A stretch of DNA of 63,625 nucleotides, filler included, from Folioceros fuciformis (Eukaryota), in NCBI GenBank assembly GCA_049999805.1. It is 22 parts of 22 records of this genome, joined end to end, with 100 filler letters (N's around TTAATTAATTAA, not from the genome) between each part and the next. Parts side by side here need not be neighbours in the genome. Positions count along the whole stretch, not along the records: positions 56,055 to 61,526 come from JBNGIO010000776.1; 21 more parts are not named here. The stretch is one strand, 5' to 3'. Both the position numbers and the translations under genes were made by a program. Of the stretch, positions 12,154 through 62,016 are shown in pieces. How positions within the stretch are numbered: position 1 is the first letter of the stretch; every line of letters begins with the position of its first letter. The notes beneath the pieces were generated by a model. The model was not told the origin of the DNA, did not search any database, and saw only the letters and a list, made by a program, of their open reading frames with translations.

Positions 12154-14578
12154 CTACCTCACCATCTTTTTCTTCTTATACACAACTTCCTCCAAACCAA
12201 CATATTGTTTCAGTCTGTTCGTGCCCTCATTCTCAGCAAAAGTTTCCAACACTTGTTTCCATTGAGGTTGTTCGTTTGCCTGTGCCACTAATTGTCTCAC
12301 CTTCTGTTGAGTTTGCTCCATTATGGAGGCTATCCCAAAAGCTAAATCTGAATGCTCAAATGCGGTATTCAGCACATGCCGTTTTAATAAAATCCAACCG
12401 TTTTTCTTTTGCCATCTCCAATTCTATCTTACATATTAGTGCCACCAAGAGGTTACTAGGCAACACAATGTGTGGAGCTTCTTGATCCTGCATCCAAAAA
12501 GCCATAGCCAAGTTGTTGGTATCACTACTTTCAGTAACACACGCTCCATTTGTTCTTCCATTTTGTCTAGTTGCTGCTGCACCATCCTTGTATATGCCAA
12601 GGAGTTGTTGAACTTTCACCACATGCTTGCAGATGAAACCTTTGTTCCCCATTGGACATGAGCATGTAGCCCAAGGAGAGTAAACATGTTCAATCACATA
12701 CCACAAGTTAGGGGTTGATGAAGACAAACAATGTGCAGCAACATTTTCAGCATGTGGTAAAATAATTGAGTTAATAGAAATAGTTTCTGCACCCTTTATA
12801 GCGGTTTCCTCCAAAGCCTCCAGCTTCTTGTTATGCCTGTATCGCCCTTCTTTCGTGAAGTGCTGGTACCAATAATGTTGGGCAACCACATTCACTAATT
12901 GGTGTAGTAACCAGTCTAGTCTACAGCCAGGCAAACTTGACTTGCTAAATGCTGCACGTTCTTTTATAAATCTTTGGAATCCTTCCACAGCTAAAGTTAT
13001 ATGTTGCCCTGCATGAGGCAACATTCTAGCATTACACAACCATATATCTATAGTCTCTCCCCATTGGACCTTCATATATCTCACAAAGTCTCCTTCACGA
13101 GTTCCCCACTTATCATAAAAATTGTGTTGCATACTTCTTCCTATGGAAACACACTGTGAAGATGTGCTTGCCCCTATGACATACATAATATCCCCTAGCT
13201 CTGCCCATATTGAAATTTGATTACTTTGTGAGTGCACTTTCTTCAATAAATTCCGTCTCCACGCTTTTCGCACATGCCACAAGCATAATAATATAGGCAT
13301 ATTATGATTCCAAACTAAGCGAATAGCAAAATCTATGCCTGACAATCATCAACAAGGAATGAACTAGGTGCCCAATCCTTGTTGATCTTTTCAACCTTCT
13401 TCCGTAAAGCTGAAAGCCACATAACAAGTGACTCAGTAGTAGCATCTTTTGTAAATAGTCCATGCTACTGGAACACCGTTCAAGTAATGGTCAAAACCCA
13501 TCACAGTGAATAAGTGGTAGCGATACCACTTATTCAACCCAAAAGTTGCATCCATAGCTAGCACATTACCATTCCCATAAAGCAACATGCAATTTAACAT
13601 AAAAGGAGTTTGAATACCCAAAGCGAAAGGTTGATTCTCGCTCGATTGATGGAAGACTATAGACGCATTTTGCTCCAACCACAGGGACACTGATGTGGCA
13701 TCATCCGGGGCTAGCTTCCATTCACCAACTTCAACTTGTGTAAGTATATTGAGAACATCATATCTTTGCATATAATAATCTTTTACTAGCTCATATACCT
13801 CTGTCTGATTGTTGATTCGAGCATACAATGCATCTTGATGCCGACACATTATTTCATCAATAGGAAATTTGCAATATAGGCAATGCCTGATCCAATCCTT
13901 CTTTTCCTGTGAAAGCCATGCTGCTCTGACATCACGGGGTAAGCCTTCATACCCAGGCCCATAACATATAGCATTTGAAAGGTCAATATGCCTATGTTCA
14001 AAAAGACTAATCTCAGCAACCGTAGGCCACACGAGAAGTTTCTTCACCCTAAAATTTGCTTGGCAACCATGCTTGACACTTTATCCACGGAGGACCTTAC
14101 ACTTAGCTGTATTAGCACCACATGACACTCCCACCTCCTTTTGACGAAAGTCTTCTGAGCCGTAAGAACACCAATACCTGCAAGTCAGCCTCACAATGTT
14201 AATGCCTCCTTAAGTAATAAAAAAATTTGCATACTTCAAACCTTCTTACCTAACATATAATACAGCTGTATGCATGGTCGATACTGCAGGGCAAGGTAAA
14301 CTCCACGGCCCCTTAGAATCCTTCTTGTAGAAGTTCGTAGGATGGGAACTTATAGCACTCATTCCCCCAATAAAGTCTCCCACTCTAGAAAAGAGTATGT
14401 GAGCCACCTTCACATGTTTTTGCTGCCCTGGTGCCCTAGAATGGTCATATTGAGAAGAAACCCAGTTTAGGTCAGTATGGTTAAATAACGCTAATTTAGG
14501 AAGCTGCACCACAAAAGGTGTGTTAGTTGGTAACTCTTCTAAATTAATACAAGAACTCAAATCCATATTATTATCCAT
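12154..14578 (-). mobile_element. MULE-type DDE transposase with SWIM zinc finger, frameshifted, one intron (~14179-14250)
   Basis: Motifs LAMDATFG, FLVDD, LLCLWH, AVEGF and SWIM CSCPMGNKGFICKH; a second copy lies at 30610-32408. Confidence 0.85.
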
Positions 14579-16484: not shown

Positions 16485-19000
16485 GTGAGACCCCCACGGA
16501 AACGGAGGGGTGTACGTCCGTAGGAGACACAGCTGATTTGGAGGGGGAGGAAGGGGAAGACAAATTCCCATTTTCTCACATCTCATGGACAGATGAAGTG
16601 GAGGACTACCGAAGGGATATTCCTTATTCCCTGAATTGGGTGGAGTGTTTTGGGCTCACCTTGGACTGCACCATGGTAGGGGCTAAAGCAGCAAACGTGG
16701 AAGGGCAGGCTGGTGAGGTTGCTGAAGGGAAGGGCCAGGAAAAAGCTCCACATGCCAAGGGGGTTGTGAAGGAAGGGGAGATGATGGAAGGGGGCTGTGA
16801 CCCAAGGCCTGATGGGCCTGGTAGTGATGACCCGGAGGTCACAAGGTTCACCTCCGAGGACCTATTGAGAGAATGGGGAATGAGGGAGGAAGATCCCCGG
16901 GAGCCGGAGGAGGGGTTTGGAGTCAGCTCAGCACCGGTGGAGCGTGAATGGGTGCAGGCTGATGAAATCAAGGATGTGGAGGTACTGCCGGGCAAGGTCC
17001 TGAAGTTTGCAAAACAGCTAGATGCCACATTGGAGGAGGGAATGAAGCAACTCTTGGCTGAGTTCATCGATGTGTTTGCCTTTGAGGTGACGGACATGAA
17101 GGGAATTCCCAAAGAATGGGGGGAGCACTAGATTGACTTGGAACTCGGAGCTGTCCTCGTCTGAATTCCACAATAAAAGTTGAATCCAAAGTACTCCATG
17201 AAGGTAAAGGAACAACTGGAGCAGTGCTTGAAGGCAGATGTGATTTTTCCCTTTGTGAATTCAGAGTGGGTGGCCCCAATCGTGGTGGTGCCCAAGAAAT
17301 AGCCTAGTAAGATTCGGGTGTGCCAAGACTGGAGGAGGCTGAACAAGGCCACCAAGAAGGATCATTTCCCTTTACCATTCATTGACAACATCCTGGATTT
17401 GGTAGCTGGCCGCATGATGTACTCCTTTTTGGATGGCTACTTCGGTTACAATCAGTTGTCCCTAAGGGAGAGTGACTGGCCATTGACAGCCTTCACAACT
17501 GATTGGGGAACATTTGCCTACAAGAGGAGTGCATTTGGGCTGACAGGAGCACCGGGGTCCTTTATGCGCAGCATGTACAAGATCTTCAAGGATTTCCTCC
17601 ACAAGTTCCTAGAGGTGTTCATAGATGACTTTTGCGTGTCTTGAGGAGTGGAGTAACATCTGGAGCGCCTAAGGCTATGCTTGGCCAGGTGCCGTGAGAC
17701 ACGGCTTTGTTTGCATCTGAAGAAGTGCTATTTTGGTGTCTGATTTTTTAGGCATGGGGGAATTTCCAGTTGATCTCACACGGCAGCAGCAGCTGCTATT
17801 CTTGTACTTCACAAGGCTGGTGGTTAAGTACAAGGGCAAGCTATATCGCACAGGAGCTGATGGCGTAGAGAGGTTGTGGGTCAAACCTGGCCAAGTGGAG
17901 CAAGTTATCAGCTCCCTACATGAGGGAGAGGCTGGAGGCCATTATGCAGCCCATGTGACCTGTAGAAAAATTCTGGCAGCAGGGTATTAGTGGCCAACAA
18001 TGCATGCTGATGCTGGAGAATTCATCAAGAGGTGTGATGCATGCCAAAGGATGGGGAAGCCTACTAGGACCATACAATGGCCATTGGTCCCCATCCTAGC
18101 CCTAGCACCATTTGAGAAGTGGGGGATTGATTTTGTAGGACCAATTCAGCCCAAGTCTAAGGGAAGGCAAAACCAATACATCCTGGTGGCAACTGACTAT
18201 TGCACACGCATGATGGAGGCCCAAGCTTTGCCCGTGGACATAGCAAATGTGGTGGCCCAATTTTTGTTTGAGCAAATCATCATAAGGTATGGGTGCCCGT
18301 TGGAGCTGGTGAGTGATAGGGGGACTCACTTCATCAATGAAGTAGTCAAGCACATGACTGAATATTTCAATATTAGTCATAGGAAGACCACTTCCTACAA
18401 CCCTAAGGCCAATGGACTCACGGAGAAGGCTAATGGGCTTTGTGCAAGATTCTCAGCAAGCTCACCGTCACCTATGCTCATGATTGGGATAGGAAGCTCC
18501 ATTCAGCCTTGTGGGTGTATAGGGCTGCTGAGAAGGTTACTACCCAGCAGACCCCTTATTACCTCACCTATGGACACTCACCGATCATGCCCATCAAATT
18601 TGAGGTACCTACCTTGAGAATGCAGGAGAGCAATCGATTGCCCGTGGAGGAGAGCCAGCTGGAGAGGCTAACCAGTTTTGTGCAGCATGATGAGGATAGG
18701 GAACGGGCCTTGGCTGTTTTCCTTGATGTTCAAGAGAGGAGGAAGAAGTGGTACGACCAGAAGTTGCGTAAACAAGAGTATGTTGTGCCTGGAGATTTAG
18801 CCTTGTTATATAACAGTAGGTACATGCACTTTCCAGGTAAGCTGCACTTGAGATGGATGGGACCTTACAGGGTGTTGGAAGTGTATGAGAATGGGTCCAT
18901 CCAACTGCAGCACCTCAACGGCCCTAACTTACCAACTAGGGATAATGGCTGAAGGGTGAAGAAATATTATCAGTAGTTGGCGAGGACGCCAACAAATGAG
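16485..19000 (+). mobile_element. Ty3/gypsy pol pseudogene (RT + integrase; RNase H region missing)
   Basis: RT motifs KKDHFPLPFID, SFLDGYFGYNQ, VFIDDF; integrase GGHY, CDACQ, FEKWGIDFVGP, LVSDRGTHF, GKLHLRWMGPY; in-frame stops and frameshifts. Confidence 0.92.
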
Positions 19001-23024: not shown

Positions 23025-23124
23025 NNNNNNNNNNNNNNNNNNNNNNNNNNNNNNNNNNNNNNNNNNNNTTAATTAATTAANNNNNNNNNNNNNNNNNNNN
23101 NNNNNNNNNNNNNNNNNNNNNNNN

Positions 23125-24788
23125 AGTTCCAGGGGTGTGGTTGCTCTGTGAGCTGGTCCAGTAGGAAATGGCTGTTCCTTCTTCTTAGCCAGGGCACAGG
23201 TCTCACAAAGAGGGAGCTCTTTCAAACATGTTGGAATGGGCTCTCTGTAGTAGTCACTCTTACTAAGGGAGGACAGAACCTTGCGATTTAGATGACCAAG
23301 CCTAGCATGCCATAGAATAGACTGCTGCTTAGCCGAAAGGGTTCCTACACTTGTAGAGTTGACTTCTTGTTTGCTTCCTGGAAGACAGGTGAAGTCCAGA
23401 CGATACAGGTCATTCTCAGGCAGAGCCCTAAAGACACATATGGAAGGGGAGTCTATCCGAGAGAAACAGCAGTAATGCTCGTGAGCTGTTAGCTGGAAAA
23501 TCTTGAGCTGAAAAAGTTTGCTGAGAGACAGCAAATTCTTGGCCATGCTTGGAACATACAAGTCGTCTGGAAGAGCAAGCGTAGACCCATCACTTAGCCT
23601 AAATGTGCAGGACCCCTGTCCTAGAATTCGTAGGCTAGTGCTATTCCGTTCATCTCCCAAGTAGACTATGTCTACACTAGAGGAGGGGGTCAATGTCGTG
23701 AAGAGGGATTCCTCACGACATATATGGGCAGTAGCCCCAGAGCCAAATACCAGGCTGCCTTGTCACCTGTGAGAGTGGATAGGCAGATGGTTAGAATTTT
23801 AACCACCGGTTTGTTGGAATCTGCAGGTCTATCTTGAACAACAGAACTAGTAGAAGGACGAGGAGTCTTGCGAGGCTCCCCGGCCTTCTTCTTCCTGCAT
23901 TCATTGGCCCAATGACCAGGTTTGCCACACCAATTGCAGCTTCCAGGACGTTTTGTTGAAGGACCTGCGTGATTGCGTTGCCCTTTGTTTCTATTTCCTT
24001 GTTGTGAATTCTGTATCTTTGTTTTATCCTTATATGCTCCTCTGCCACGGAATGCAGTAAGCACTGTCAACTTTGGCTTTCCCAGTCCCTGACATGAGCC
24101 TGCTCTGCTCTTCCTGGAAAAGGGCACCTATAACCTCGTCTAAGGTAATAGTAATTTGTCTCCCAGCAGCATCGGCAGCTATAGCCTGTCGGATGGGGAC
24201 ATTGTGGGCAGATACAAAAGTCTGGTAACTTGGTGGCAGGCTGGTGAGCAACTGAGCAATCACGTCCACCTCATCCATCACTGTACCAAGGGAAGTAAGT
24301 TGTGCTCGAAGATGTCTAAGTTTGCTAGTGTGAGCAAGAACTTTGTCACCCTCTCGCATCTTAAGTCCATAGAATTCTGTGCGTAATGCACATAGTGTAA
24401 GGACATTACTGACTTTGTACTGGCTCTCTAACTGGGACCAAATTTCACTAGCCTTGGTTAGAAATTCTATAGGAGGAATGAGATCCTCTGTCAGGCCAGA
24501 AACAAGAAGGGCTATACCTATGCTGTTTGCATGAGCCCACTTATCCTTATCTGCTTGAATGGCAGTTGCAGGTGGCTCAGGAATAGAGCCATCTACAATA
24601 CCCCAGACTCCTCTAGCCAACAATGTCGACTTCATCCGCACTCTCCACACCTCGTACTTCTGACCATTAAACCTGTCTTTTTCTTTGAGTTCAGATGTGA
24701 AGACAGGGTTGTAAGGGCCAGGAGGACCAGGAAGTGAAAGAGAGGGCGGAGGTGGAGGAGGGGGAAGGGGAGGATTAATGTTAGACAT
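23125..24788 (-). mobile_element. Ty1/copia gag-protease-GAG-pre-integrase pseudogene
   Basis: gag FNGQKYEVWRVRMK, zinc knuckle CNWCGKPGHWANEC, LYVPSMAKNLLS, LWHARLGH...CETC; frameshifts. Confidence 0.92.
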
Positions 24789-26080: not shown

Positions 26081-28292
26081 CATGGCCACCAACACAATTG
26101 TCCCAATGCTCACAGGATCTATGCCAACATTCACCGACCATATAAAGGAAAATGACCGTTTTAACGGCTAGCGTTATCCAGTATGACGAGTGTGAATGAA
26201 GCCAATCCTAATTGGCCGTGGTGTTTGAAAAATTGTCGATGGGAGCCACCCCAAACCAGACCCCACTACAACCCCTCCTCCTCCTGCAGCCGACACTGAG
26301 AAGTGGGAATATTTAAACGGAATTGCAGTGGCCCTCCTTATCTCTGGCTTGGACTTGAGCTTAGTGCCAAGCGTCAAGTTCCTCACAGAAGCCTCTTCCA
26401 TTTGGAACCAACTCTCCAACACTTACAATGTGAACAATGTCCTGACACTCTACAGCATCAGACAAGAATTCAACGCTCTTAAGATCAAGGAGACGGGCGC
26501 AGTCGTAGCACATACCTCTAAGTTCAGACAGCTTAGAGGGCAGTTGGCCTCCCTTGGGTCAATGATGATCGAGACCGACGCTGCTGCTCAGCTGCTCATG
26601 AGTTTGCCGGCCTCCTACCAACATTTTGTCACTAGCCTGATGCTGGTGTCAACTTGCGGCATCTCTGGATCCACCTCCTCTCTGACAGTGAAGGAAATCA
26701 TCGGTGCCCTTTACCAACATGAACAAAGCTGCCTCAATTATGTAGGAGGGTCCAAGCCCAAGGCAAACAAGGCACTCGCTGTTCGTTTTAAGCCTGGGAA
26801 ACTCAAGGGGAAGCAGGCCACTACCTCTAAGGGTGAGTCAACCTCAGCTCCACCACGCCGGGTAGGTAACTACAATTGGTGCGGTACACCCGATCACTGG
26901 CACGAGAGTGCCGCAAGAAAAAGGCCGGAGAGCCATAGAAGCCTAGCCTCTGCCAGACCGCAAGTGTAGCTGTCAAAGGCAAAACAGTATGTGAGGAGAC
27001 AAAGATGATCAAGATTCTCACCGTCTGCCTCAATACTCAGCCACAGCAAGACAGGGGGTGGTACCTTGACAGTGGAGCCACCGCTCATATTTGCAATGAC
27101 AACACTCTGTTCTATAAGCTGGACACATGTCCTATCAGAGAAAGAGTGCTCCTAGGAGATGAGCAGAACAAATAAAGTCTGCCCATACTTGGATACGTGA
27201 CTTGTGAGTTCCCCTTACTTGACGGATCAACACTTACCCTAGAGCCTGTGCTCTATGTTCCACATATGGGGAAGAACCTCGTTTCCCTTAATCAGCTCAT
27301 GCAAGAAGGTACCCAGGAGATACTGTTCTCACATGACTCTTGCTGTTTTTATGGGCCAACTAACTCCGACCTGTGCGTGTTAAAAGCCATCCTTCAAGAT
27401 GGACTTTATGAGCTCACCTTGGACAACAGACAGTAGCCCCTTGTCTTCACTGCAGAACAGCCCTCTTCAAGTCTTGGTACCCTTTGGCACACCACACTTG
27501 GTCACATCAACAAGAATAAGTTGATCTCAATGTCATCACAGGACCTATACAAGGAACCTCTGCCAAGATGCCTCCGGCACCTTCCCGTTTGCGAGCCATG
27601 TGTGCTTGCAAAGCAAAAGAAGTCGCCATTTCCCAAACATGCAAAGAGGGTAGAGTTAGTGCTGGAGCTGGTCCATGTCGATATATCGGGAAGGATTCAC
27701 ACTCCATCCTTGGGAGGGGAGATCTATTATCTCACCCTCACCGACAACTTCAGATACTCGTGGACCTTCCCCATGCACCTGAAGAGCGACACATTCACTT
27801 ATTTTAAGGACTGGCTACTTGTTGTCGAGCGTCAGACAGGCAACTTGTTGAAAACCTTGCGAAGCGACAATGGAAATGAGTTTGTAAACAATGAGTTTGA
27901 TGCTTTCTTGCTTGAGTGAGGAATCCAAAGACAACTCCGTGTTCTCTACACCCCACAGCAAAATGGGGTTGCTGAGCGTAAGAACTAGACGCTCCTCTCC
28001 TTGACTCGAAGCATGCTCTTGTGGTTCGGTCTTCCGCAGGGCTTCTTGGCTAAAGCCATAGTGGCCGCTACATACATCTTGAACCAAATTATTACAAGCT
28101 CCGCACCCGGCCGCACTCCATACGAGGTATTCTGGAAACAGAAGCCAAGTATTCAACACCTGTGGGTCTTTGGATCTGCAGTTTTTGCCACATCCTTGCA
28201 CAAAAGCGATGCAAGTTAGAGGACAGGGCAAGGGAGCTGATTTTTGTAGGCTATAGTGAATCTACCAAGGCCTACAAACTCGTAGACCCTGA
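26081..28292 (+). mobile_element. Ty1/copia gag-protease-integrase pseudogene, related to 23125-24788
   Basis: gag ORF 26328-26969, WYLDSGATAH protease motif, LELVHVDISG, LRSDNGNEF, PQQNGVAER; many stops. Confidence 0.92.
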
Positions 28293-28937: not shown

Positions 28938-29965
28938 TGGAGATGGGGAAGCAGCTGCACACCCAAATTCAAGAACAAGGGCTTTGAAGCTGATGTGAAC
29001 GTAGCCAACAGTTTGGTGAACATGTACTCAAAGTGTGGTAGCCTAGACGATGCGCAGCGGGTGTTTGGCAGATTAAATCGGAAAGATGTAGTGACGTGGA
29101 CAGCTCTCATTGCAGGATATTTACGGCAAGGAATGGGCGTCAAGGCTCTTAGCGTTTACCGTGCTATGCAAGAGGATGGGGTAGCTGTGCCTGATTGTGT
29201 CACATTAGTGTGCCTCCTGCAGGCGTGTGCATATGTGGCAGCTTTCCATTTGGGAAGGCAGCTACATATGCGGATCAAACAGCAAGGATTTGAAGCTGAT
29301 GTAATTGTCGCTGGCAGTTTGATTAACATGTATGCAAAGTGGGGAAGCATGGTTGAAGCACAGAAGGTGTTCGATTCATTGTCTGACAAAAACATCGTTG
29401 CCTGGAACGGACTGATTGCAGGATACAGCCACCAAGGAGATAGTGAAGAGAGTGAATGAGAGTGGACGGTATACTGCCAGACAGCATAACGTTCCTTGGT
29501 GTGCTGACAGTCTGTGCTCATACAGGTCAAGTGAGCAAGGGGTGGGAGTACTTCGAAAGCATGAGCAGCCACAGTGACATCGCCCCAACGGTGGAGCACT
29601 ACGCATGCATGGTAGGTCTCCTGGGCCGTGCAGGCCGACTGGACGAGGCACAAGGCCTGGTGAGGAGCATGCATGTACCACCTGATGCCACAGTTTGGCA
29701 CACTCTGTTGGGGGCCGCTCAAAAGTGGAGGAACGTGGAGGTTGGACGCCATGCTTTCAAGCAAGCAGTGAAGCTAGACAAGAAAGATGCAGCAGCCTAC
29801 GTGTTGATGTCCAACATGCCCTAAACACCAGAGCCGAAATTCGGAGCAACCACAGGCCTTGCAGAGGAAGAGGGTGAGAATTAAGGCATGAAGCAGACGG
29901 GACAAAGGTGGTGGACAGACATGGACGGCCAGTGGGCTGGTGCACAGTTTTTGTTGTTGGGGATA
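28938..29965 (+). pseudogene. PLS-class PPR pseudogene fragment with E1/E2 and a WW-type PG-box remnant
   Basis: L-S-P repeats (NSLVNMYSKCG, DVVTWTALI), VEHYACMVGLLGRAG, AAAYVLMSNM, then GQRWWTD and VHSF; frameshift near 29455 and stop near 29822. Confidence 0.85.
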
Positions 29966-30609: not shown

Positions 30610-32408
30610 TTCTCAATATGACCATTCTAGGGCACTAGGGCAGCAAAAACATGTGAAGGTGGCTCACATACTCTTTTGTAGAGTGGGAGACTTTATCGAG
30701 GGAATGAGTGCTATAAGTTCCCATCCTACGAACTTCCACAAGAAGGATTCTAAGGGGCCAGGGAGTTGATCTCGCCCTGCAGTACAAATAGTGCATACAG
30801 CTGCATCATATGTTAGGTAAGAAGGTTTGAAGTATGCAATTTTTTTTATTATCTAGGGAGGCATTAACATTGTGAGGCTGGCTTGCAGGTATTGGTGTTT
30901 TTACGGCCCGGAAGACTTTTACCAAAAGGAGGTGGGAGTGTCACGTGGTGCTAATACAGCTAAGTGTAAGGTCCTCCGTGGAGAGAGTGTCAAGCATGGT
31001 TGCCAAGAAAATTTTAGGGTGAAGAAACTTATCGTGTGGCCTACGGTTGCTAAGATTGGTCTTTTTGAACATAGGCATATTGACCTTTCAAATGCTATAT
31101 GTCATGGGCTTGGGTACACAGGCGTACTCCGTGATGTCAGAGCAGCATGGCTTTTATAGGAAAAGAAGGATTGGATCAGGCATTGCCTATATTGCAAAGT
31201 CCCTGTTGATAAAATAATGCGTCGGTATCAAGAAGCGTTGTATGCTCGAATCAACAATTAGACAGAGGTATATAAGCTAGTAAGAGATGATTATATGCAA
31301 AGATATGATGTTCTCAATATACTTACAAAAGTTGAAGTTGGTGAATGGAAGCAAGCCTCGGATGATGCCATATCAGTGTCCCTGTGGCTGGAGCAAAATG
31401 TGTCTATAGTCTTTCACCAATCAAGTGAGAATCAACCTTTCGCTTTGGCTATTCAAACTCCTTTTATGTTAAATTGCACGTTGCTTTATGGGAATGGTAA
31501 TATGCTAGCTATGGATGCAACTTTTGGGTTGAACATGTATCGCTACCACTTATTCATTGTGATGGGTTTTGACCATTACTTGAACGGTGTTCCAGTAGCA
31601 TGGGCTATTACAAAAGATGCTATTGATACTACTATTGAGTCATGTGTCAAGTGGCTTTCAGCTTTACGGAAGAAGGTTAAAAAGATCAACAAGGATTGGA
31701 CACCTAGTTCATTCCTTGTTGATGATTGTCAGGCAGAGATTTATGCTATTTGCTCATTGTGGAATCATAATATGCCAATATTATTATGCTTGTGGCATGT
31801 ATGGAAAGCGTGGAGACGGAATTTATTGAAGAAAGTGCACTCACAAAGTAATCCAATTTCAATATGGGCAAAGCTAGGAGATATTATGTATGTCACAAGG
31901 GCAACCACATCTTCATAGTGTGTTTCCATAGGAAGAAGTATGCTACAAAATTTTTATGATAAGTGAGGAACAAGTGAAGGAGACTTTGTGAGATATATGA
32001 AGGTCCAATGGGGATAGAGTATAGATATGTGGTTGTGTAATGCTAGAATGTTGTCTCATGCAGGGTAACATACAACTTCAGCTGTGGAAGGATTGCATAG
32101 ATTTATAAAAGAACCTGCAGCATTTAGCAAGTCAAGTTTGCCTGGCCGTAGACTAGATTGGTTGCTACACCAATTAGCGAATGTGGTTGCTCGACATTAT
32201 TGGTATCAGCACTTCATGAAAGAAGGGGGATACAGGCAAAACAAGAAGCTAGAGGCTTTGGAAGAAATCGCTATGAAGGGTGCAGAAACTATTCCTATTA
32301 GCTCAGTTATTTTACCGCATGCCGAAAAGGTTGCTACACATTGTTTGTCTTCATCGACCCCTAACTTGTAGTGTGTGATTGAACATGCTTACTCTCCTTG
32401 GGCTATAT
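30610..32408 (+). mobile_element. MULE/SWIM transposase pseudogene, copy 2 (intron 30817-30888)
   Basis: Closely similar to 12154-14578; GT..AG intron inside YVR/YWC; multiple premature stops. Confidence 0.85.
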
Positions 32409-37061: not shown

Positions 37062-38174
37062 TGTGGTGTCCACACTAGCCCTAGCACCATTTGAGAAGTG
37101 GGGGATTGATTTTGTAGGACCAATTCAGTCCAAGTCCAAGGGAAGGCAGAACCAATACATCTTGGTGGCAACTGACTACTGCACATGCATGGTGGAGGCC
37201 CAAGCTTTGCCCGTGGACACAGCAAATGTGGTGGCCCGATTTTTGTTTGAGCAAATCATCATAAGGTATGGGTGCCCGTTGGAGCTAGTGAGTGATAGGG
37301 GGACTCACTTCATCAATGAAGTAGTCAAGCACATGACTGAATATTTCAATATCAGTCATAGGAATACCACTCCCTACAACCCTAAGGCCAATGGACTCAC
37401 AGAGAAGGCTAATGGGCTATTGTGCAAGATTCTCGGCAAGCTCACTGTCACCTATGCTCATGATTGGGATAGGAAGCTCCATTCAGCCTTGTGGGCGTAT
37501 AGGACTACTGAGAAGGTTACTACCCAGCACACCCCTTATTACCTCACCTATGGACACTCACCGATCATGCCCATCGAATTTGAGGTACCAACCTTGAGAA
37601 TGCAGAAGAGCAATCGATTGCCCGTGGAGGAGAGTTAGCTGGAGAGGCTAACCAGTTTTGTGCAGCATGATGAGGATAGGGAACGGGCCTTGGCTGTTTT
37701 CCTTGATGTTCAGGAGAGGAGGAAGAAGTGGCATGACCAGAAGTTGCGTAAACAAGAGTATGTTGTGCCTGGAGATTTAGCCTTGTTATATGACAATAGG
37801 TACATGCACTTTCCAGGTTAGCTGCACTTGAGATGGATGGGACCTTACAGGGTGCTGGAAGGGTATGAGAATGGGTCCATCCAACTGCAGCACCTCAATG
37901 GCCCTAACTTGCCAACTAGGGTTAATGGATGGAGGGTGAAGAAATATTATCAATAGTTGACGAGGACACCAACAAATGAGAAGGGGAGTATGTGGACTCC
38001 ACATGCTGAATAGGTCCTTGGAAAATGGTAGGATTTCTCTTTTTGGGAATCTCTAAGTAAACCCTGTGGTGAAATGGTTAAAAGATTAGGTTAGATTAGT
38101 AGCTAGATTAATGGTGAGGCGAGACGTATCTTTGAAGGGTTGCTGGAATGATCTGAGAGAAGGGATGGAATGAT
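37062..38174 (+). mobile_element. Ty3/gypsy integrase fragment and 3' region (same family as 16485-19000)
   Basis: Near-identical to 18090-19000; FEKWGIDFVGP...WMGPY. Confidence 0.92.
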
Positions 38175-55954: not shown

Positions 55955-56388
55955 NNNNNNNNNNNNNNNNNNNNNNNNNNNNNNNNNNNNNNNNNNNNTT
56001 AATTAATTAANNNNNNNNNNNNNNNNNNNNNNNNNNNNNNNNNNNNNNNNNNNNCAGGTATTATATGCCTGGAATGGGCAGCTTCGGTGCAGACGACACT
56101 CCAGTCCAGCCGGCGCCTTGCTGCCTATGATCTCGCTACACTACACTACACTACACTACACTATCTTCTTCTCTTACCATTTTATTTTAACAAGGTTTGC
56201 GTATGTCTGTACATGCCATATCCTGAGCACAGGCAATTAGAATTTCGCAGCACGGATGGCGTTGCCTATCATAGGACACTCCTCCAATCCAAACAGACCC
56301 AAAGAGAAGACCTCTTTTTTCCTTCTTTCCCTTTCGATTCTTATGTTACATTAAACTAAATAACCATGAACTCCTCCAAACTCAACAG

Positions 56389-59300
56389 CTATGGTCGACC
56401 CTTACAACTGCAACAGCCATTTTCAAAGCGATGCACTCGGTACCCATCCCTCACAACGATGTGTCTCTGTTCCACCCTCGACATGATCTCCGTGGAACTG
56501 TGGCAGTCGCTGCACATTCGTAGGTTTTTGGTCACCACCAGAGGTGTCCCACTGGCGGTGTTCAGCAGACCGAAGGCCAAAGCTAGTTTCTCAGCATGCC
56601 CGCAAAGCACATCTTCCTTCTCCTTCTCTGACACGGGCTTCAGAACCAACTTTGTGTCAGGTACGTGGCCTCCTTCCTGCTTTAGACGAGCGTTCGTGCT
56701 CTCTACCTTCACAGCAATGTCCTCCCTCCTTTCTCCCACCAGGAACCGATGTAGCTGCTTCTTCACCTCGATGGTCGTCACTGCAGGTGTCTTGCTGGCT
56801 CCCGCTACCCTTCTCCGTGTTTCGGTCCTCTCTACATCGCTCCACCGACCTGCATCTGCGTACGCATTAGCCATGAGCACGTAGGCGGCCGCCTCCTGAG
56901 GGTCCAGCCTAACAATGCTTTCGAAACACCACCGCGCCCTCTCCACATCCCCGTGACTTTTGCAGGCATTCAGCAGCGACGTCAAGCCCACAATGTTACT
57001 CTGCGCCTCACATGACAATAGCATCTTCTCGGCCTCGTCTAACAGGCCTGCTCGCCCAAGAAGATCAATCATGCAAATGAAATGCTCCACACCAGGTTGG
57101 ATGCCATGCTCTTGAGCCATGGAGTCCAAGTGCCTGCGACCCTCGTGCACCAGTCCACCATGACTGCATGCCACTAGAAGGCAAGTGAAAGTCACGTCAT
57201 TAGGCTGAATGCCAGCACCTAACATCTCCTCAAAACAGGCTAGTGCCTCGTGAGCTTCATCACAAGTACCGTACCCGGATATCAGAGCATTCCATGTCAC
57301 CACATCCTTTCCGCTCATGCTGTCGAACACGTGGCGTGCATCTTCCATCTCCCCACATTTTGCGTACATGTCCACCAGGCAGTTTCCCACCAAAACGTCA
57401 TCCACCAGTCCACTTTTCACAATCCGGGCGTGCAGCTGCCTACCCTGTTGTAACGCACCCGTGCTTCCACAGGCCTTGAGAAGGCAGGCATAAGTAACAT
57501 GGTTAGCCAACACGAGGCCCTCTTGCTCCATTCGTCCATGGAGAAGAAGCGCCTCATCCCCAAGCCCTGACTCGGTGTACCCAGATATCAGGGCGGTCCA
57601 TGTCACCACATCCCTTGTCTTCATGCTGTCAAAAACCTGGCGGGCATCATCCACTTCACCGCATTTTGCATACATGTCCACCAGGCAGGTCCCCAACACG
57701 ATGTCACTCACGAGTCCTCGTTCCACGATCTGTGAGTGTAGGTGCCTGCCCTTCAGTAAATCACCACTGCTGCCACAGGCTTTGAGAAGACAAGCAAACG
57801 TAACCTGGTCAGCCACAACAACGCCCACCTCCTCCATCACTCCATACACAAGAAGCGCCTCTGCGGCCTTGTTTACCTCTACATACCCAGATATGAGGGA
57901 ATTCCATGTCACCACATCCTTTGAGGCTAAACTGTCGAAAAGCTGGCGTGCATCTTGCACTTCACCACATTTGGAATACATATCCACCAGACAGTTGCCC
58001 ACCATCACGTCATCCAGCAGTCCTCTTTCCACTATCTGCAGGTGCAGCTGCCTGCCCTTATGTAAGGCACCGGTGCTTGCACAGGCCTTGAGAAGGCAGG
58101 CAAAAGTAACGCGGTCAGCCAAAATGAGGCCCGCCTCCTCCATCTGTCCATACACAAGAAGCGCTTCATGTCCAAGCCCTTGTTGTGCATACCCGGCCAT
58201 CAGCACCGTCCATGTCACCACATCCTTCGTTGACATGCTCTCAAAAACCTGGCGGGCATCTTTCACATGGCCACATTTCGCATACATGTCCACTAGGCAG
58301 TTACCAACGAACAAGTTGATAGGAATGCCACTGTGCAAGACATCACAGTGCACCTTTCTGCCGGATTGCAAGTCTTGTGCAAGTGCACAAGCCTGAAGGG
58401 CAGCTACGAAGACGTGAGCATCCGCCTTGGTTCCTGACCTACACATGTCATGGTACAGTCGTAGGGCCACATTGGGTTTCCCATGCTTGGCGTATGCGGA
58501 GATGATGGAAAACCACATGAACACGTTTGGTTTGGGCACCCTGGTGAACACGTCCATGGCCTCCTGCAGCCTACCGGCACATGCATACATGCGCAAGATA
58601 TGGTTACCCAAGTAGGCGTTGGACTGGTATCCGAGGTTGACGGCCAGGTCATGAACTCGTCGTCCTACAACCACATCCTTTTTAGCTGCACACAGTTTTA
58701 GCACAGTATAAAAAAGAGAATGAGAGACAGCAGAATCTGTGTGCGCCAGAAATTCGAGGGCATCGACGGCCTCAGACAGCTTCCCCCGCCGACACAGCAT
58801 GTTCACGGTTCCAGGCGTCACAACGCCCATTTCCGATCTTGCACCCTTCCTAGCCTCTTTCTTATGGGTGGAGGTGGACTTGGAAAGAGAGGCACCGTGA
58901 TCCATCTGCACATCCAAGGAACCTAGCTGGTGATAAACCCAAGCTGGCTTCAAGATATCGTTCAACCACAGGACCTCGCCGGAGCCTTTACGCCGGAAGT
59001 GAGGCACATGGGAACTCTTCTTGGCCCGTCTGTTGTCCCACCACATGGTAGGCTCCTGGAAAAATTGTTGCCACAAGTGCTGATGCTGCTGCTCCTCCTG
59101 GGGACGACCATCGCTGGAAACGCGGTCCCCAGCCACACAATCTTGCGGATGCGGAATCGCCGAGCTCCTTAGACTGCTGCCGCACCTGGAGGGCATTTCC
59201 GATTCTGCACGCACCCCGTATTCAGGACAGCTCCTGCCCTGACCCAGCTGCATATCCAAGGAAACGAGCTGGGCATCAACCCAAGCTGGCTTGGACATGC

Positions 59301-59679
59301 CGGTTAACCACAGGACCTCGCCGGACCCCTTGTGCCGGAAGTGAGGCGAACGGGAGCTCTTGTGATCTCGTCTGTTGTCCCACCACACGGTAGGGTCTAG
59401 GAAGAATTGTTGCCACAAGTACTCCTGCTCCTGGACAACAGCGTGGCTGCAAACCCCGTCTCCCCCTACACATTCTCTCGTAAGGCGCAGTCCTCGGCTC
59501 CTTCCGCTGCTGAACCCGGGGGATCGGTTGTTTGCCAGAGCTTGATTCCCTGAGGTGGTGATGTGAGCGGGAAGCCGTAGCAGAATCCCAGTCCCTGTGT
59601 TTGTAGACACGCGGATTGCGAGTGGTTGGCTCCATGGAGAGTCCGGGTCCGCCGGCAACGGCCACACTCCGGTGGCCAT
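56389..59679 (-). CDS. Intronless PLS-class PPR protein: 2x OSB-type PDF-like motif, ~17 PLS repeats, E1, E2, DYW:KP domain ending GRP (candidate organellar U-to-C RNA editing factor)
   Basis: 1096-aa ORF; L-S-P triplets; KTPAVTTIEV box in place of the PG box; HAEKLA; CSDCH; C-terminus SCKGRP; two W..FF..P..WWDNR..K..R/H.PHFR.KGSGEVLWL motifs. Confidence 0.95.
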   Translation of the reverse strand: MATGVWPLPADPDSPWSQPLAIRVSTNTGTGILLRLPAHITTSGNQALANNRSPGFSSGRSRGLRLTRECVGGDGVCSHAVVQEQEYLWQQFFLDPTVWWDNRRDHKSSRSPHFRHKGSGEVLWLTGMSKPAWVDAQLVSLDMQLGQGRSCPEYGVRAESEMPSRCGSSLRSSAIPHPQDCVAGDRVSSDGRPQEEQQHQHLWQQFFQEPTMWWDNRRAKKSSHVPHFRRKGSGEVLWLNDILKPAWVYHQLGSLDVQMDHGASLSKSTSTHKKEARKGARSEMGVVTPGTVNMLCRRGKLSEAVDALEFLAHTDSAVSHSLFYTVLKLCAAKKDVVVGRRVHDLAVNLGYQSNAYLGNHILRMYACAGRLQEAMDVFTRVPKPNVFMWFSIISAYAKHGKPNVALRLYHDMCRSGTKADAHVFVAALQACALAQDLQSGRKVHCDVLHSGIPINLFVGNCLVDMYAKCGHVKDARQVFESMSTKDVVTWTVLMAGYAQQGLGHEALLVYGQMEEAGLILADRVTFACLLKACASTGALHKGRQLHLQIVERGLLDDVMVGNCLVDMYSKCGEVQDARQLFDSLASKDVVTWNSLISGYVEVNKAAEALLVYGVMEEVGVVVADQVTFACLLKACGSSGDLLKGRHLHSQIVERGLVSDIVLGTCLVDMYAKCGEVDDARQVFDSMKTRDVVTWTALISGYTESGLGDEALLLHGRMEQEGLVLANHVTYACLLKACGSTGALQQGRQLHARIVKSGLVDDVLVGNCLVDMYAKCGEMEDARHVFDSMSGKDVVTWNALISGYGTCDEAHEALACFEEMLGAGIQPNDVTFTCLLVACSHGGLVHEGRRHLDSMAQEHGIQPGVEHFICMIDLLGRAGLLDEAEKMLLSCEAQSNIVGLTSLLNACKSHGDVERARWCFESIVRLDPQEAAAYVLMANAYADAGRWSDVERTETRRRVAGASKTPAVTTIEVKKQLHRFLVGERREDIAVKVESTNARLKQEGGHVPDTKLVLKPVSEKEKEDVLCGHAEKLALAFGLLNTASGTPLVVTKNLRMCSDCHSSTEIMSRVEQRHIVVRDGYRVHRFENGCCSCKGRP

Positions 59680-59939
59680 ACTTGTCCAGCGAACATATGT
59701 AGTTTAGCTAGTTGTTGTTGTTCAGGGAGCGGAGTCAAAGTCGTTCATGGACGGACGGTGTGTGATGGATACGTTGTAGTGGCAGGATGATGACCATGTG
59801 TCTATTTACTGTCATGTCACAACGCGGTCTGTGGCTCACTCGGAGTTATTAGTCCTGAAGGAACAACAACACCATCTTCTCCCTCCTCTAATCGTGTTCG
59901 TGTAGGGGAGGGGACTTTCATGGCTATCCACCACCAGGA

Positions 59940-61526
59940 CCCCCTTAAGCACCACTGCTGCCACAGGCTTTGAGAAGGCGCTTAAGCAAACGTAACCTTG
60001 TCAGCCAAAACAACGCCCACCTCCTCCATCACTCCATACACAAGAAGCGCCTCTGCGGCGTTATTTTCCTGCGCATACCCAGATATGAGGGAATTCCATG
60101 TCACCACGTCCTTCGAGGCTTCGAGGCCAACGTATCAAAAAGCTGGCGTGCATCTTGCAGTTCACCACATTTGACATACATGTCCACCAGGCACGTGCCC
60201 AGGATTACATCATCCAGCAGTCCTTTATCCACCATCTGCGAGTGCAATTGCATGCCCTTCTGTAAGGCACCAGTGCTTCCACAGGCCTTGAGAAGGCAAG
60301 CAAAAGTAACTCGATCAGCCAACATGAGGTCCGCCTCCTCCATTTGTGCATACACAAGAAGCGCCTCTTGGCCAAATCCTTGGCGTGCATACCCAGCAGT
60401 CAGGGCATTCCATGTGACCACATCCTTCGTGGCCATGCTGTCAAAAACCTGGCGTGCCTCTTTCACTTCACCACATTTAGCATACATGTCCACGAGGCAG
60501 TTGCCAACAAACAACTTAGTAGGAATACCACTGTGGAGCACATCGCAGTGCACTCTCCTGCCAGATTTCAAGTCAGCGGCGAGTGCACAGGCTTGAAGGG
60601 AAGCTACGAAGACGTGGGCATCCACCTTCACATCTCACCTACGCATCTCATGGTAAAGTTGTATGGCTTGGTGAGGTTTCCCGAGCTTAGCATGTGCAGA
60701 AATTATGGAAAACCACATGAAGACGTTTGGTTAGGCAACCCTGGTGAGCACTCCGGCAGCCTCCTGCAGCCTCCCTTCACATGCAAGCACGCGCAAGATA
60801 TGGTTCCCCAAGAATGAGCTGGAATCGTACTCAAGTTTGGCAATGAGACGATGAAGTCGACGGCCTACAACCAAATCCTTGTTAGCTGTACACAGTTTTA
60901 GCAGAGTGTACAAGAGAGTACGAAATGGCACACTCCTTCTGCGCAAGGCTCTCCAGCGCTCCAACGGCCTAAGAAAGCTTCCCCTGCGAACATAACTAAC
61001 GTCCTCACGGTGACAGCAGTAACGACGGTGAGTTGCGATAGCCCACGCCTGCCAGGTTTAGGCTTGTACGGAGAGCTGGACTGGAACGGAGAGGCAGCAT
61101 GGTCCAAGGAGACCAGCTGCTGCTCCTAAACCCGAGGTGGCTTACGCATGTTGTTCAGGCACAGCGGCTGGGCGGACCCGTTACGACGGAAGTCAGGCAC
61201 ACGGGAGCGCTTCTTCTCTGGTATGCTATCCCACCTCATGGTGGCCTCCAGAAGAAATGGTTGCCATATGTGTGCCTGCCCCACGCAACGCGCGTCGCTG
61301 GGAGACCCATGCCCATCCACAAACTTCGCGGGAATTGGAAGTATTGGGCTCCTTACGATGGCTTTGCTTGCCAGGGGTGGACTCCGACTCCCGAGGCTGA
61401 GGGTTCACGGGCTCCCGAACCCTTCACGGGCTTGCATTGAGGGCCTCGGGAATCCGGGCCTCCGGGGATTCAGGGGCTCGGCTGGTCTGGGGCCTTGGGA
61501 ACTTGCTCGTATGTTGAAGTGAGGAG
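59940..61526 (-). pseudogene. Tandem truncated, frameshifted paralog of the PDF-PLS-GRP gene
   Basis: Same PPR repeats (DAHVFVASLQACALA, DVVTWNAL, DRVTFACLLKACGSTG) and one degenerate PDF motif (RSRVPDFRRNGS); frameshifts; no E or DYW domain. Confidence 0.88.
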
Positions 61527-62016
61527 NNNNNNNNNNNNNNNNNNNNNNNNNNNNNNNNNNNNNNNNNNNNTTAATTAATTAANNNNNNNNNNNNNNNNNN
61601 NNNNNNNNNNNNNNNNNNNNNNNNNNTTTGCGGCGCTGTTAGACATAACACTAATAAACTCAATTGCCGGCCTGGCAGCTGCTGCGTTGCTGCCCCGCCT
61701 GAGTTATTCGCATATACCAGGGATAGCGTGAGGACTTCCGGATTAGATTTTAGTGCTTGACGTTGGGTGACATATCCAGCAATACTATCCATTGCCTCAT
61801 ATCCCGTACAGACGTATCTACCCACCTCCGAATCATGGTGAATGCTTTTGAATTAATTATTTGTATATTATCTCATTAAATATCTGGTAAATTAAAAACT
61901 CTCCCCAGCATTGCAATGTAATGCGGAATGCGCTAAGGCAACATATGCAAGTACATTATAACATTTGCAGGACACATGCCTTAGGGTTTAGGATTTTGAG
62001 TTTCTTCTCTTGCCAT

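Follow-up and report, generated by a model that had tools for sequence, protein, structure and literature searches.

Does an intact pentatricopeptide repeat (PPR) gene of Folioceros fuciformis encode an enzyme that converts uridine to cytidine in organellar RNA, and if so, which RNA sequence would it recognize? The question is raised by a 63,625-nucleotide (nt) stretch of DNA (the window) from the assembly GCA_049999805.1. The window consists of 22 joined parts, and adjacent parts are not necessarily neighbours in the genome. The part holding the gene (positions 56,055-61,526) comes from JBNGIO010000776.1, and the product of the gene is called P0001 here. U-to-C editing is, to our knowledge, the one pyrimidine transition whose natural enzyme-target pairs stay unassigned. 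The gene is a nuclear, intronless PPR gene of the GRP type with a DYW:KP domain, and it most likely encodes a site-specific organellar U-to-C editing factor. An intact natural GRP gene with a clean, readable PPR code is material for pairing enzymes with their targets and for engineering base editors.

An intact GRP-type gene and its DYW:KP domain

The gene occupies positions 56389-59679 on the minus strand, which carries all of its features described below. It is one unbroken open reading frame of 1096 codons and a stop codon (TAG, 56389-56391). The first ATG of the frame lies at 59679, and the stop-to-stop frame opens at 59703, merely 24 nt upstream. An earlier reading of the same DNA, made from the sequence alone (the sequence-only reading), had reported an intact protein in the interval 56389..58720. 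The single frame of 1096 codons bears out that the protein is intact, and the 3' end of the interval was right, but at its 5' end it extends only to where the first L motif begins, whereas the frame reaches the ATG at 59679. In other words, 286 N-terminal residues with two PDF-type motifs, located upstream of the first PPR motif, lay outside that account. Pieces of the gene were present with 0 differences in public-run contigs from two studies (for example, 58585-59686 and 58585-60038), and one of these data sets may have given rise to the assembly. The contig 58585-59686, from a run guessed to be RNA, stops 7 nt upstream of the ATG, a point beyond which contigs labelled as DNA continue; seen in a single study, this does not count as evidence of expression. 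The public runs also contained 1998-2792 pieces that were at least 90% like the 5.5-kb stretch containing the gene, an abundance that marks a very large family of paralogues.

P0001 is a PLS-class PPR protein with E1 and E2 motifs and a DYW:KP domain of the GRP subtype. Its first 84 residues (59428-59679) match no domain and may act as an organelle-import presequence. The two PDF-type motifs follow, and the PPR tract then spans residues 287-895 (56995-58821) as delimited by Pfam, by hand-set borders, and by a hidden Markov model (HMM). The tract begins with a degenerate P motif and an L-S pair, continues with four full P-L-S triplets (35/36-35-31 residues), and ends with P2-L2-S2. The E1 and E2 motifs comprise residues 896-962 (56794-56994), with boundaries set by hand, and the lengths of P2, L2, S2, E1, and E2 are 35, 36, 32, 34, and 33 residues. 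The deaminase-like DYW:KP domain comprises the last 134 residues (963-1096; 56392-56793), and its assignment is supported by Pfam, alignment, tree, and structure model. Pfam matched the PPR repeats with PF01535 (E 1.8e-82) and PF13041 (E 3.6e-81), the E motifs with E_motif at residues 909-971 (E 2e-14), and the C-terminus with DYW_deaminase PF14432 at residues 1004-1094 (E 4.2e-34). These E-values place the domain assignment far beyond chance. The gene belongs, as an ordinary member, to a large family that is already known; 1,583-2,308 PPR genes per genome are described for four hornworts (PMC13386178).

What sets the C-terminal domain apart from that of PG-type proteins? The last 150 residues of P0001 were compared with those of 21 relatives obtained in a search with residues 880-1096 (22 sequences in total). 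Counted from the K-x-P box, the domain has 134 residues in P0001 and 132-134 in all 14 KP-type sequences, P0001 included, as against 137 in all seven PG-type sequences. At the PG-type site K-x-P-G-x-S-W-I-E-V, P0001 reads KTPAVTTIEV. The glycine of the box is replaced by alanine in P0001, as in 12 of its 13 KP-type relatives (P0008 keeps PG). P0001 also lacks the three residues found at the xHP site of PG types, and it reads GHAEKL where they read HSE, RMC (with M before the first zinc cysteine) where they mostly read RVC or RLC, and RVH where they read RFH. HAE and the M before the first zinc cysteine are named as DYW:KP features in PMC9478123. The K103 position, a lysine in PG types, is held by E1064 (in SSTEIM) in P0001 and by E, E, T, and Q in four relatives ending in GGRP. 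P0001 terminates in CSCKGRP, and a GRP ending was found in five of 91 proteins. Two relatives showed oddities in the alignment: P0011 has HVE at the HxE site, and P0009 has an additional HSE outside the active site.

The sequence-only reading had listed the missing PG box, a shortened gating region, HAE, and the GRP ending, and all of these reappeared in the 22-sequence alignment; the strings it quoted are present in the translation of 56392-56793, that is, in residues 963-1096. Because the missing xHP falls at the start of what is called the gating domain in OTP86 (H837-G891; PMC7611903), shortened gating region is a fair description. The residues of the deaminase signature are kept. Ten positions (H1028, E1030, K1051, C1056, D1058, C1059, H1060, H1083, C1090, and C1092) were invariant in all 20 aligned sequences of E2 plus domain, P0001 included. 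They cover the H and E of the HxE zinc/catalytic signature, which reads HAE here (H1028-A1029-E1030; 56590-56598), the CxxCH signature seen in the alignment (C1056-S-D-C1059-H1060; 56500-56514), and K1051 in TKNLRMC (56527-56529). The last is the counterpart of the conserved Lys88, whose role has been described in designer proteins (PMC11845758).

The DYW:KP class was reportedly defined by Gerke et al. 2020 and Gutmann et al. 2020. It is found in hornworts, lycophytes, and ferns, and its hornwort members fall into a DRH and a GRP subgroup (PMC9478123); the taxonomic restriction is confirmed in PMC13386178. This agrees with the sequence-only reading, which had named hornworts, ferns, and some lycophytes and a GRP ending typical of hornworts. 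GRP proteins are described as lacking the aspartate of DYW and as having a glutamate at K103 (PMC9478123). The position of P0001 within the class was examined in a maximum-likelihood tree of the C-terminal 170 residues. The tree held 57 of the first 62 proteins; P0019, P0024, P0032, P0050, and P0058 were dropped for incomplete C-termini. It split into an HSE/DYW side of 25 rows and an HAE side of 32 rows with a support of 100/99, and P0001 fell on the HAE side. The five GRP-ending proteins, including P0001, formed one clade (100/98). This clade adjoined the group in which the eight DRH proteins fell (92/89), and GRP and DRH proteins together were supported at 99/97.

The nearest relatives of P0001 are unnamed assembly products that end in GGRP and share 60-68% identity with it over the last 217 residues. 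A relative, P0002, is collinear with residues 198-1096, from a PDF motif through GRP, with 57% identity over 902 residues and an equal number of motifs. A second wide search found nothing closer than P0002 (59% identity). Among known systems, the closest are the GRP-type PPR-DYW:KP proteins of hornworts together with KP2 and KP3, the consensus designs based on them (Ichinose et al. 2022, PMC9478123), which have the (P-L-S)n-P2-L2-S2-E1-E2-DYW:KP architecture in common with P0001. P0001 resembles hornwort GRP proteins in the GRP ending, HAE, RMC, the absence of xHP, the glutamate at K103, and the retained Lys88. It differs from the designs in being a natural protein with a PPR code of its own, and KP2 and KP3 were likened to it by description only. 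It differs from GRP proteins in having K-T-P-A instead of K-K-P-A or R-K-P-A, R-H-I instead of R-E-I or R-D-I, and two N-terminal PDF motifs. The DRH-type DYW:KP proteins of hornworts form the sister clade and have the KP signatures in common, but their ending is DRH, and the aspartate missing from GRP proteins is preserved in them. Canonical DYW:PG C-to-U factors (OTP86, DYW1, and synthetic PPR-DYW) have the same fold, zinc-binding residues, and PPR register as P0001. They differ from it, however, in the PG box, xHP, HSE, RVC/RLC, RFH, the DYW ending, the 137-residue domain, and their place on the other side of the 100/99 split.

The structure model of the domain further supports a deaminase fold. 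An AlphaFold model of E2 plus domain, built from the 20-sequence alignment, had a mean pLDDT of 92.2. Foldseek matched the model to a crystal structure of a synthetic PPR-DYW protein bound to RNA (9kfx_A; E 7.6e-18, template modelling score 0.88, root-mean-square deviation 1.8 A over 166 columns) and also to OTP86 (7o4e and 7o4f) and DYW1 (7w86). Likewise, sequence matches in the PDB were confined to synthetic PPR-DYW, OTP86, and DYW1 (E 1e-44 to 4e-28), all of which are PG-type.

Direction of editing and the predicted RNA target

How would P0001 edit its target? After import into plastids or mitochondria, either of which could be its site of action, the 18-motif PPR tract would bind single-stranded RNA 5' of the target, with one motif per nucleotide and S2 opposite position -4. 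The P and S motifs would set the target sequence through their fifth and last residues, and E1 and E2 would join the tract to the deaminase-fold domain. There, a zinc site made of H1028, C1056, and C1059 would act with E1030 and K1051 to aminate uridine. Speculatively, the two N-terminal PDF-type motifs might add unspecific binding of single-stranded nucleic acid or a contact to another protein.

Evidence for the direction of editing comes from designer proteins. The GRP-based designers KP2 and KP3 gave U-to-C editing of ~26% and ~22% in E. coli, and C-to-U editing is given as undetected for them in that account (PMC9478123). Lys88 is described as required for U-to-C editing by KP2, KP3, and KP6, and its loss switches them to C-to-U (PMC11845758). 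In designer KP proteins, the lysine is further described as crosslinking to the edited base and as needed for U-to-C editing, and because of the crosslink U-to-C products are detected only after treatment with proteinase K ahead of RNA extraction (PMC11845758). The same lysine is conserved in PG types as well and hence does not discriminate between the classes (PMC11845758). The state of the gene also supports an intact editor: P0001 is open over 1096 codons, whereas the paralogue directly upstream is frameshifted and truncated.

The PPR code of P0001 could be read along the whole tract. Motif borders were set by hand, and an HMM of the protein's own triplets served as a check. Listed in order, the fifth and last residues begin with TS for the P motif at residue 287, which is degenerate and has an uncertain border, and continue with L YN, S NN, P FD, L VN, S ND, P TD, L AD, S ND, P ND, L AD, S TD, P TN, L AD, S ND, P2 NN, L2 TG, S2 IN, E1 TE, and E2 VS. 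For the P and S motifs, the sequence-only reading had given S NN, P FD, S ND, P TD, S ND, P ND, S TD, P TN, S ND, P2 NN, and derivation by hand and with an HMM returned the identical series. It had also placed S2 at -4. This is the register described for KP proteins, in which L2, S2, and E1 face -5, -4, and -3 (PMC9478123). By the published code rule, N at position 5 specifies a pyrimidine and S or T a purine, and D at the last position specifies U or G and N specifies C or A (PMC12733224).

From the code rule and the S2 register together, the target is predicted to read 5'-Y N N U G N U U N G A N U Y N N N N N [U]-3'. The pattern derived in this way is the one that the sequence-only reading had proposed. 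The two NN motifs lean to C by the strict rule. FD, all L motifs, and S2 (IN) yield no usable base call. Designer KP proteins are described as additionally preferring a purine at -2 and a pyrimidine at -1 (PMC9478123), and P0001 probably shares these preferences. The nine informative positions amount to 16 bits, so that chance would produce an exact match once per 65,536 positions with uniform bases and about once per 36,000 at an assumed A+U content of 65%. A pattern of 16 bits would be decisive against some hundreds of editing sites, but it is too weak to pick a site from a genome alone.

Some observations weigh against assigning P0001 to U-to-C editing and to this target. The published evidence for U-to-C activity considered here comes from consensus-designed rather than natural proteins (PMC9478123, PMC11845758, PMC12733224), and no natural KP protein with a proven target was met in the literature consulted. 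Furthermore, the designer KP6 edits C-to-U as well in human cells (PMC9478123), so that membership in the KP class is no absolute guide to the direction. P0001, its KP-type domain notwithstanding, could then be an active editor working from C to U or in both directions; its full deaminase signature (HxE and CxxCH) and deaminase fold would serve such an activity, and the replacement of Lys88 shows that KP proteins can be turned to C-to-U. However, the counterpart of Lys88 is present in P0001 as K1051, the domain lies inside the GRP clade, and both designers of that clade gave U-to-C only in E. coli, as reported in PMC9478123. C-to-U editing, whether alone or alongside U-to-C, is accordingly given a slim chance. 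As to the target, the stretch that runs from -19 to the edited base has 20 positions, and base calls exist at just nine of them. The codes of the five closest relatives all differ from that of P0001, and P0002 agrees with P0001 in just five of ten P/S codes as read from the alignment. Conservation thus lends the predicted target no support.

Further points on the same side come from the domain itself. T964 of the K-T-P-A box departs from the relatives, as the residue before P is K in all 13 KP-type relatives. H1073 in R-H-I stands where the 19 other aligned domains have E (15), D (3), or T (1), and G1079-Y1080 stands where the other KP-type relatives, except for the fern protein P0033, have A-H, S-H, or A-R. 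Do these substitutions mean that the gene, although open, no longer edits? It could be a drifting young duplicate in a transposon-rich region, or it could encode an RNA binder without catalysis. T964, H1073, and the PHF of both PDF copies, together with the transposon-rich setting, keep this explanation alive: copia and MULE fragments are plentiful in the window, dead PPR pieces lie at 28974-29674 and 59947-61272, no relative with the same code was found among the closest ones, and the public runs hold thousands of paralogous pieces. On the other hand, a dead gene is unlikely to retain a 3.3-kb frame free of stops and frameshifts, and an example of decay is at hand in the neighbouring copy. 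The residues invariant over the 20 aligned domains are all kept, and the structure model is confident. A non-editing protein is therefore regarded as unlikely, and a site-specific U-to-C editing factor as the probable identity of P0001.

The N-terminal PDF motifs

What are the two motifs that precede the PPR tract? A 65-residue motif, WQQFF-PT-WWDNR-K-S-PHFR-KGSGEVLWL-KPAWV, occurs twice, at residues 85-150 (59230-59427) and 199-264 (58888-59085). Identity between the copies is 65% in protein and 80.7% in DNA over 197 nt, and a profile built for the motif matched the first copy with E 5e-37. The N-terminal region had no Pfam family at E <= 10, except for a weak match to TumE at residues 96-119 (E 0.098), and neither the whole of P0001 nor its residues 1-300 had an SSB or OB match in Pfam at E <= 10. 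A first, less exhaustive search with the motif returned one candidate that shared words with it and none that scored. A profile of five motif copies searched against 1.84 billion representatives, in contrast to that search, matched 935 proteins at E <= 0.001, 430 of them at E <= 1e-10.

The proteins that carry the motif point to the OSB family. OSB proteins are described as having an SSB/OB-fold domain and at least one C-terminal repeat with a conserved Pro-Asp-Phe (PMC6963530, PMC13393729), and the PDF motif of AtOSB1 is sufficient for binding single-stranded DNA (PMC6963530). A Pfam scan covered 16 of the 150 best matches to the profile. In three of these proteins (P0116, P0122, and P0130; 341-380 residues), two motif copies came after an SSB domain that scored above the cut-off. 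The other 13 comprised two with SSB below the cut-off, seven with PPR, one with a kinesin motor, two with no family, and one with low-complexity matches only. The link to OSB proteins is drawn from this architecture of a Pfam SSB domain with C-terminal motifs and from the published descriptions, rather than from a named OSB sequence. The PDF motif of OSB proteins counts about 50 residues. The 65-residue motif of P0001 matches the repeated C-terminal motif of the SSB-domain proteins, whose architecture is that of OSB proteins, but in P0001 it is N-terminal and fused to PPR repeats, no OB/SSB domain is present, and the eponymous D is changed to H in both copies. The aspartate was kept in all 15 compared motifs, whereas both copies in P0001 read PHF. 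Judged by its sequence, P0001 has a motif in common with OSB proteins without being one of them.

A model of the motif (pLDDT 87.1) consists of a helix, three short strands, and a helix. It had no Foldseek match at E <= 0.001, and its best Z in VIA-align was 3.4 over 48,161 chains. As far as the model goes, these structure searches show neither a new nor a known fold.

Is the N-terminal region part of the protein? If the true start were a later ATG, the first 286 residues would fall outside the protein, and the PDF motifs would belong to a 5' leader or to a fused gene model. The 5' limit of the sequence-only reading, 58720, would suit such a start. However, the frame is continuous from 59679, and P0002 is collinear from its PDF motif to GRP, as noted above. 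Moreover, 11 of the 150 best representatives matched by the profile were PPR proteins that carry one to three motif copies N-terminal to their repeats, as found with purpose-built HMMs. A later start is therefore very improbable. An intron or a fused gene model for the N-terminus was dropped on the same grounds, namely the continuous frame, the collinear P0002, and the PDF-PPR proteins elsewhere.

The 11 PDF-PPR proteins suggest a wider occurrence. Two of them are named as the lycophyte Diphasiastrum, and the carriers include DYW:PG proteins as well as E-type or truncated PPR proteins. P0052, a PG-type protein named as the liverwort Calypogeia, also carries the motif. One tentative possibility is that the OSB-type PDF motif, described until now as the module with which OSB proteins bind single-stranded DNA, also recurs at the N-terminus of PLS-class PPR editing factors of non-seed plants as an accessory module, although this is more doubtful than the editing function itself. 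If it is such a module, the motifs could help editing factors hold single-stranded RNA or recruit partners, and P0001, as a natural protein, would then be well suited as the first example in which a native DYW:KP factor is matched to its U-to-C site. No paper describing PDF motifs on PPR proteins was found in the collection of open-access papers to which the search was confined (subscription papers and bioRxiv supplements lay outside it); a review that touches on both subjects speaks of PDF motifs in OSB proteins only, and the words OSB and PDF are absent from a kingdom-wide survey of domain fusions in editing factors. The PDF-motif pair is the less expected part of P0001, linking two plant families of organelle nucleic-acid-binding proteins, and the double N-terminal motif is the sole feature of the gene that a specialist might not expect.

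The profile search also brought up proteins of other kinds. P0092, P0093, and P0094 carry 9-13 PDF copies each, as compared with one to five described for OSB proteins (PMC13393729). P0128, a protein of 1526 residues with a kinesin motor domain, matched the profile in three stretches and may be another fusion or a gene-model artefact.

Surroundings of the gene in the window

The truncated and frameshifted paralogue lies outside the gene, directly upstream of it and on the same minus strand (59947-61272). What is left of it is a PDF-like motif in degenerate form and the first PLS triplets, scattered across several frames; the C-terminal half is missing. Over 973 nt it is 82.0% identical to 57759-58718 of the gene. 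An isolated PPR fragment is present on the plus strand at 28974-29674, with an open reading frame of 154 residues and a Pfam PPR match of E 2.5e-25. A blastn comparison of this fragment with the DNA of the gene found no similarity at E <= 1e-5.

Fragments of copia-type long terminal repeat elements (gag, pre-integrase, and integrase core) and of MULE/SWIM transposases occur at 12359-14047, 18000-18614, 23076-24788, 26328-26966, 31295-31915, and 37063-37635. No other intact gene was recognized in this transposon-rich remainder of the window. The expansion of hornwort PPR genes is described as proceeding by dispersed duplication near transposable elements (PMC13386178), and the transposon-rich window fits that picture, bearing in mind that its parts need not be neighbours in the genome. 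At 21 places in the window (for example, 55955-56054 and 61527-61626), paired runs of 44 N with 12 bases between them mark the joins of parts, and one of these joins lies 335 nt downstream of the stop codon of the gene.

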